Shown here in pieces: positions 508-1,414 of a DNA stretch of 5,652 nt. The first letter of the stretch is position 1; the number at the start of each line of letters is the position of its first letter. Source of the DNA: a virus. Its lineage: Duplodnaviria; Heunggongvirae; Uroviricota; Caudoviricetes. Under the pieces are notes generated by a model, which was not told the DNA's origin, searched no databases, and saw only the letters and a program-made list of their open reading frames with translations. The DNA lies in IMG/VR virus record IMGVR_UViG_2529292833_000006. One strand, 5' to 3'. The position numbers and the translations under genes are program-made.

Positions 508-1414
508 TCTCCCGCATATTGCCAGCATGGCCTTTAATGAGCCGCTGATGCTTGAACCCGCCTATGCGCGGGTTTTCTTTTGTGCGCTTGCAGGCCAGCT
601 TGGGATCAGTCGCCTGACGGATGCGGTGTCCGGTGACAGCCTGACTGCCCAGGAGACACTCGCGCCGCTGGCGTTATCCGGTGATGATGACGGACCACGA
701 CAGGCCCGCAGTTATCAGGTCATGAACGGCATCGCCGTGCTGCCGGTGTCCGGCACGCTGGTCAGCCGGACGCGGGCGCTGCAGCCGTATTCGGGAATGA
801 CCGGTTACAACGGCATTATCGCCCGTCTGCAACAGGCTGCCAGCGATCCGATGGTGGACGGCATTCTGCTGGATATGGACACACCGGGCGGGATGGTGGC
901 GGGAGCATTTGACTGTGCTGACATCATCGCCCGTGTGCGAGACATAAAACCGGTATGGGCGCTGGCCAACGACATGAACTGCAGTGCAGGTCAGCTGCTT
1001 GCCAGCGCCGCCTCCCGGCGTCTGGTCACGCAGACCGCCCGGACAGGCTCCATCGGCGTCATGATGGCTCACAGTAATTACGGTGCTGCCCTGGAGAAAC
1101 AGGGCGTGGAAATCACGCTGATTTACAGCGGCAGCCATAAGGTGGATGGCAATCCTTACAGCCATCTTCCGGATGACGTCCGGGAGACACTGCAGTCCCG
1201 GATGGATGCAACCCGCCGGATGTTTGCGCAGAAGGTGTCGGCATATACCGGCCTGTCTGTGCAGGCTGTGCTGGATACCGAGGCTGCAGTGTACAGCGGT
1301 CAGGAGGCCATTGATGCCGGACTGGCTGATGAACTTGTTAACAGCACCGATGCGATCACCGTCATGCGTGATGCACTGGATGCACTAAATCCCGTCTCTC
1401 AGGAGGGCGAATGA
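488..1414 (+). CDS. C: Prohead maturation protease (lambda gpC-like, peptidase S49/SppA-like family); ORF ends at the Nu3 start instead of continuing in frame
   Basis: GTG at 488 preceded by GAGGAGGAG (475-483). Translation VTAELRNLPHIASMAFNEPLMLEPAYARVFF... recalled as lambda gpC. The ORF track extends it upstream to a TTG at 374, which lies inside B and is unlikely to be the real start. Stop TGA at 1412-1414 overlaps the ATG at 1411. Confidence 0.8.
   Translation: MTAELRNLPHIASMAFNEPLMLEPAYARVFFCALAGQLGISRLTDAVSGDSLTAQETLAPLALSGDDDGPRQARSYQVMNGIAVLPVSGTLVSRTRALQPYSGMTGYNGIIARLQQAASDPMVDGILLDMDTPGGMVAGAFDCADIIARVRDIKPVWALANDMNCSAGQLLASAASRRLVTQTARTGSIGVMMAHSNYGAALEKQGVEITLIYSGSHKVDGNPYSHLPDDVRETLQSRMDATRRMFAQKVSAYTGLSVQAVLDTEAAVYSGQEAIDAGLADELVNSTDAITVMRDALDALNPVSQEGE

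Follow-up and report, generated by a model that had tools for sequence, protein, structure and literature searches.

In phage lambda, gene C, which encodes the S49 head protease, and the scaffold gene Nu3 are nested in frame (Shaw & Murialdo 1980; Medina et al. 2010, as cited in PMC8508860 and PMC10695390), and both genes are essential (PMC10695390). In the lambda record J02459, C occupies positions 4418-5737 and Nu3 positions 5132-5737. The DNA analysed here, 5652 bp in length and referred to below as the window, departs from this layout: its C reading frame stops at the start codon of the Nu3 frame, and the two frames differ. An earlier note, made from the letters of the window only, explained this by a single base missing near position 1385 and supposed a lesion that might leave gpC untargeted to the procapsid. 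The question raised by this locus is whether the protease and the scaffold are indeed separated in a real phage, by mutation or by a different organization of the genes, or whether their separation arose on the way from the cell to the database.

The window corresponds, from end to end, to contig AQDY01000028.1 in the draft assembly GCA_000355395.2 of E. coli strain 2756500; a literature search for the assembly and strain names found no mention of them. The comparison with lambda 3931-9583 gave 96.7% identity, and the identity to lambda and many lambdoid phages and prophages amounts to 96.7-97%. The genes follow in the order B (3′ end), C/Nu3, D, E, FI, FII, Z, U and V (5′ part), so that the portal gene lies upstream of C/Nu3, while the genes for the decoration protein D and the major capsid protein E lie downstream. 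The features that matter for the argument are collected in Table 1.

Table 1. Features of the window bearing on the C/Nu3 frameshift (window coordinates).
Feature	Position	Strand	Evidence and remarks
Portal gene B, 3′ end	1..507	+	Alignment to lambda B, portal annotation; Pfam Phage_portal_2 matches the product
C (S49 head protease), as deposited	488..1414	+	308 aa; Pfam Peptidase_S49, NfeD1b_N
Site of the dropped base, codon Arg300 CGT (second base, lambda G5316)	1385..1386	+	Alignments
Shine-Dalgarno AGGAGG for the internal Nu3 start	1401..1406	+	Sequence reading
Nu3 scaffold frame, 135 aa	1411..1818	+	In the undamaged gene also the last 135 codons of the 443-aa C
12-nt insertion relative to lambda, natural C/Nu3 C-terminus allele	1797..1808	+	Alignment; closed genome 90-9280
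Dropped base, start of the T-run between D and E, A/T variable column	2208..2213	+	Alignment, panel
Dropped base in E, C/T variable column	2932..2933	+	Alignment, panel; E split into 2215-3141 and 2943-3239
Six dropped-base events in Z, variable columns	4103..4358	+	4103 (two bases), 4115, 4147, 4167, 4333/4334, 4358

As deposited, C runs in frame 2 from the GTG at 488 to the TGA at 1412-1414 and encodes a protein of 308 aa that ends in ...DALDALNPVSQEGE*. This protein consists of 299 native residues, which differ from lambda gpC by 5 substitutions, and a 9-residue out-of-frame tail, LNPVSQEGE. The N-terminal part bears the S49 (ClpP/SppA-like) serine peptidase domain, the 308-aa product being matched by PF01343 (Peptidase_S49) and PF25145, and the truncated product is on record as EMW68771.1, "clp protease family protein [Escherichia coli 2756500]". 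The Nu3 frame, beginning with MTKETQ, opens with the ATG at 1411 in frame 1 and encodes 135 aa; the ATGA at 1411-1414 forms the stop/start overlap. The window thus reads just as the earlier note described it, with the stop codon of C overlapping the Nu3 ATG and the two genes in frames 2 and 1, respectively. Frame 1 is likewise open from 1372, its translation CTGCTKSRLSGGR leading directly to the initiator Met, so that KSRLSGGR indeed stands in front of MTKETQ. The scaffold start, AGGAGG at 1401-1406 followed by the ATG at 1411, lies inside C as it does in lambda. An identical 135-aa Nu3 product has been called in many E. coli assemblies and is found in 57 protein-collection blocks.

Pairwise alignments with lambda J02459, phage Kati and the prophage of E. 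coli H10 placed the gap between 1385 and 1386, where the lambda sequence GCACGTAAA (GCA CGT AAA) corresponds to GCAC-TAAA in the window, with one base absent from the Arg300 codon. The prediction of a single missing base near 1385 was therefore borne out, and the alignments also supported the view that it is this base, and not a different gene layout, that separates Nu3 from C. Restoring one base yields a C protein of 443 aa with Nu3 in frame. In the deposited sequence, Nu3 and C (frames 1 vs 2) share neither the frame nor the stop codon; they share both after the one-base repair, as they do in every natural relative examined. We attribute the discrepancy to a fault of the assembly and not of the phage.

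The comparison with lambda made in the earlier note holds in one part only. Nu3 of lambda is nested in frame within C, as stated, but the MTKETQ ATG is not the nu3 start given in GenBank: the annotated start lies at 5132 (201 aa), and the MTKETQ ATG corresponds to lambda 5342 (131 aa). Since C shares its frame with either start, the argument on nesting is not affected. The Nu3 CDS of phage 434 (OL657226, 1202-1807) carries a note that begins "real Nu3 start ...". This hints that its annotators considered the 201-aa GenBank-style start to be wrong, which would fit the MTKETQ ATG with its strong Shine-Dalgarno sequence.

Two further length differences have another nature. The 12-nt insertion at 1797-1808 turns the shared C-terminus of C and Nu3 into ...NKELLNTPEALPV; the intact 443-aa C encoded by prophage copy A of the complete genome 90-9280 has it as well, and it is a natural allele, not an error. 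In the same way, the 3-nt deletion at 3508 is a natural allele common to intact prophages.

How far the junction created by the missing base occurs was studied with a 40-mer centred on the deletion, for which megablast seeding is possible only in sequences sharing the deletion. This 40-nt junction was found at none of the 4554 homologous places, which were located in 3220 of 5426 complete E. coli genomes, and in none of 50,697 phage records. Exact-pattern scans of the GTDB representatives (one genome per species) and of the JGI metagenome contigs gave no match either. In all 80 gpC relatives retained from IMG/VR, residues 1-439 are encoded in a single frame, and the closed genomes have one annotated S49 peptidase gene of 1320 or 1332 nt. 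Among the lambdoid relatives surveyed, an out-of-frame, ATGA-coupled C/Nu3 pair, which the earlier note had named as the finding that would overturn its reading, occurs in none. The junction is thus absent from independent high-quality assemblies, as expected of an artefact. Besides the window, its only carriers are L009 (AQDO01000075.1, from the sibling draft GCA_000355335.2) and L004 (IMGVR_UViG_2529292721_000003), a 9471-bp contig of the E. coli 2866350 draft, whose truncated protein is ENB10122.1. All the carriers are drafts with neighbouring accessions and strain names of one style, which suggests a single submission batch.

The column of the alignment that corresponds to 1385 is a G/A site. 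Most relatives have G (CGT, Arg300), and a minority has A (CAT, His300). An IUPAC scan revealed the CAT allele in 8 lambdoid IMG/VR contigs, and a 42-mer with the A allele matched 79 places in 77 complete genomes. A first panel of 53 sequences had made the column appear invariant, but it was biased towards lambda-like C, and the wider scans gave the A allele. An extra match in an 18-mer IMG/VR scan (L106) and a match of the H pattern (L102) were both rejected as unrelated chance matches. The two alleles may also reside together in one cell: the complete genome of strain 90-9280 (O114:H49) contains copy A with G and a 443-aa C, and copy B with A and a 439-aa C, and the complete genome of ETEC 120899 contains prophages P1 and P2 with G and A, respectively, both having an intact C. 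The two prophages of 90-9280 lie at 4,454,523-4,463,184 and 154,363-166,404 of NZ_CP024240. We infer a similar G/A mixture at this column within strain 2756500.

The base at 1385 is not the only one that the window lacks. Relative to every reference, it is also short of one base in E, seven bases (six events) in Z and one base at the D/E T-run. Restoring one C at 2932 yields a 341-aa E, and Z is broken by its missing bases into several ORFs. The breaks in E and Z are drops at variable columns, i.e., they belong to the same class of artefact as the C/Nu3 shift. To characterize this class, we aligned four drafts with 80 natural sequences; the drafts were the window, L009, L004 and L098 (IMGVR_UViG_2529292725_000005), the last being derived from IMG genome 2529292725, which numerically adjoins that of L004. 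The drafts showed 9 (window), 11 (L009), 1 (L004) and 5 (L098) short deletions and not a single short insertion, whereas each of the 80 natural sequences has 0 or 1 short deletion. The drops fall on 22 distinct columns, and natural lambdoid sequences are polymorphic at 21 of these, as compared with 11.7% of all columns (binomial p = 5.6e-19); the sole exception is one half of a 2-nt event that adjoins a polymorphic column. The column at 1385 was dropped in three of the four drafts, while most variable columns were resolved.

The drops at columns 1339, 1363, 3654 and 3732 are common to L009 and L098. These two contigs differ at 68 substitution sites, and at column 1385 L098 calls A where L009 calls nothing. 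The recurrence of the four drops despite so many differences is therefore column-specific and a property of the artefact. Deletions that occur only where related prophages differ are unlike the outcome of mutation or of random read error; drops at inter-copy differences are the output of a consensus caller that merges diverged copies of a repeat and leaves a heterozygous column uncalled. The supposed lesion in gpC targeting is thereby left unsupported, as the missing base falls into this class of dropped consensus columns in merged drafts.

Direct comparison with the closed genomes showed that the sibling contigs L004 and L098 are mixtures of two prophages. L004 agrees with P1 and P2 of 120899 at every one of the 6809 sites that these share, and it agrees equally with P1 along the 2552 nt upstream, to which P1 alone has homology, with 0 differences in both comparisons. 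P1 and P2 vary at another 111 sites; of these, 47 carry the P1 state in L004 and 63 the P2 state, and the contig switches 30 times from one to the other. The single non-parental state is the base dropped at the G/A column, with 0 private substitutions in 9.4 kb. In other words, thirty crossovers within 7 kb would have to occur without one new substitution, which no credible natural recombinant would show; the pattern is that expected from majority calls on a two-copy pile of reads. The same holds for L098 when compared with copies A and B of 90-9280 over 6.5 kb: all 6238 invariant sites are identical, 247 of the 252 variable sites are in a parental state with 25 switches, and the 5 non-parental states are all dropped bases at positions where A and B differ.

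The window itself matches A or B at 241 of the 245 sites at which these copies vary, with 43 switches. It differs at 18 sites where A and B are the same, as against a median for natural sequences of ~14 per kb (~78 over the same length). The unexplained sites cluster at 4537-5386, adjoining the deletions in Z, suggesting that the strain from which the window came has a third or another Z-U-V haplotype. With A and B alone as parents, the dropped columns of Z and the substitutions at 4537-5386 were left over; most of them are accounted for by a haplotype from strain C8, with which only 2 substitutions in 5652 nt remained unexplained. With C8 included, 6 of the 10 columns dropped in the window are variable among the stand-in parents, and the other 4 are variable in the wider panel. 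The mixture is thus perfect for L004 and L098 and near-perfect for the window, and as the parents of the latter are stand-ins and not the true ones, its result lends support without being exact. A parsimony copying model (switch cost 1, mismatch cost 1, against 80 natural references) was uninformative: the drafts gave 3.6-6.2 per kb vs a natural median of 2.7 with a range up to 22, so that the two groups were not separated.

Taken together, the data make it very probable that the C/Nu3 frameshift is an assembly artefact produced by collapsed paralogous prophages, and not biology. Three things were observed as such, namely the rule on the location of the drops, the composition of the sibling contigs as mixtures and the lack of the junction in all other sequences searched; the events behind them may be pictured as follows. 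Most probably, E. coli 2756500 bears at least two lambdoid prophages with head and tail modules ~97% identical, as related complete strains do. The assembler would have merged reads of these co-resident prophages into one consensus contig of 5.6 kb, in which one base or the other was called at most inter-copy sites and nothing at a minority of them, thereby creating one-base deletions. At column 1385, one copy would have CGT (Arg300) and the other CAT (His300), and the base was presumably left uncalled. The consensus step may render such a mismatch between copies as two half-empty columns and drop both. In the real prophages, C and Nu3 are most probably intact and fused, in the form of a C of 439 or 443 aa with Nu3 in frame at its C-terminal end, Nu3 being made also from the internal start, as in lambda.

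An improbable alternative is that one prophage copy has actually lost the base in the course of ordinary decay and carries the sequence GCACTAAAT. If so, the protease would be cut at residue 299 and extended by the 9-residue tail, with the loss of its Nu3-like targeting domain; Nu3 would still be produced from its own start, and the prophage would be defective in head maturation. The junction does recur in three contigs of different strains, and defective lambdoid prophages are common, e.g., the widespread type with an A-to-C deletion (L006-L015). The strongest candidate for a real allele is L004, because it is the only carrier of the deletion without any other indel, in 9.4 kb. However, it is just in this contig that the deletion falls exactly on an inter-copy variable column, for which the random chance is 111/6920, or ~1.6%, and since the contig contains no substitution of its own against the 120899 prophages, a private indel is hardly to be expected. 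Moreover, the carriers are built on different parental pairs (A/B vs P1/P2), so that a real deletion would require independent origin or transfer; the junction is confined to drafts of apparently one batch, with 0 of 4554 places in closed genomes; and the variable-column rule holds as well for the drops in E and Z and for those of the sibling drafts. Were the deletion real after all, it would provide a natural test of whether the Nu3-like tail delivers gpC into the procapsid.

Other explanations appear still less probable. Separate protease and scaffold genes are known in other phage families, and the ATGA overlap with a strong Shine-Dalgarno sequence resembles translational coupling, so the window might be thought to represent a natural two-gene arrangement, or a fusion made by programmed -1 ribosomal frameshifting; we give this hardly any credence. 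Lambda has the same ATGA and the same Shine-Dalgarno sequence, and its C continues through them in frame; they are thus no adaptation to the shift. None of the functional phage genomes or closed prophages surveyed showed the arrangement, and the survey effectively refutes an alternative gene organization. As for programmed frameshifting, inspection of the sequence between 1372 and 1411 revealed no slippery heptamer of the X XXY YYZ type, and the same contig, with its broken E and Z, cannot represent a working phage. An equally far-fetched proposal is a random sequencing error, i.e., a homopolymer or low-coverage miscall unlinked to paralogous copies. It would agree with the fact that there are only deletions, several of which adjoin two-base runs, but such an error would not strike variable columns in 21 of 22 cases, would not be repeated in three assemblies at one and the same column outside a homopolymer and would leave the perfect two-parent mixtures unexplained.

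The locus bears close resemblance to that of lambda: the window has kept the protease domain, the Nu3 sequence and the internal ATG with its Shine-Dalgarno sequence, and the nested in-frame layout becomes identical once one base is restored. It differs from lambda in the base that codon 300 lacks as deposited, which puts C and Nu3 out of frame, and in the natural 12-nt insertion that makes the shared C-terminus longer (443 vs 439 aa). The other system to which the window is to be compared is the class of consensus errors in short-read drafts with collapsed repeats. Here, too, one deals with a short contig bounded by the edges of a repeat, with calls that alternate between co-resident copies without private substitutions (L004 and L098), and with indels confined to the sites that vary between the copies. 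The usual symptom of collapse is, however, a chimeric or ambiguous call, whereas here some heterozygous columns were deleted, so that the result mimics frameshift pseudogenes.

Several other observations were made on related prophages. A defective prophage is widespread in E. coli in which Nu1 and a short remnant of A are joined to the last ~25 protease codons of C; in an example, L006 (9165-13187), the homology to the window begins at 1337. In this prophage (L006, L007 and L010-L015), Nu3 is a free-standing called gene, Z is truncated, and a fragment of J lies downstream. It resembles the window in having the identical 135-aa Nu3 ORF followed by D, E, FI, FII and Z, and differs in that a real deletion removed the protease part (A, W, B and C codons 1 to ~283) without any frameshift, and in having G at the 1385 column. 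Many contigs of short-read drafts end within C, at about residues 257-393 and often at 299-311, and their products are deposited as "partial" S49 peptidases (proteins P0002-P0030, which cluster with the truncated C), which indicates that C contains a common repeat boundary among co-resident lambdoid prophages. In the closed genome of 120899, an IS66-family element, ISCro1, interrupts both lambdoid prophages, lying in Z of one and in A, the large terminase gene, of the other (L110, 10226-13511, and L111, 310-4942). Owing to this interruption, both are genuinely defective, for reasons unrelated to C.

Existing knowledge of lambda head assembly is left unchanged by these results. Their meaning lies in a caution on how the prophages of E. 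coli are read from draft genomes: drafts of strains with multiple prophages may collapse several lambdoid prophages into one chimeric contig, and one-base deletions at the differences between the copies then look like frameshifted pseudogenes, as they do here for C, E and Z. The chimeras L098 (5475-11944) and L004, which are listed in IMG/VR as viral genomes, are each a consensus of two prophages of one host with 25-30 switches and represent no real phage. The products of the artefact have been deposited as truncated proteins (EMW68771.1 and ENB10122.1), and the error is inherited by pseudogene counts, by estimates of prophage "decay" and by catalogues of viral contigs such as IMG/VR.
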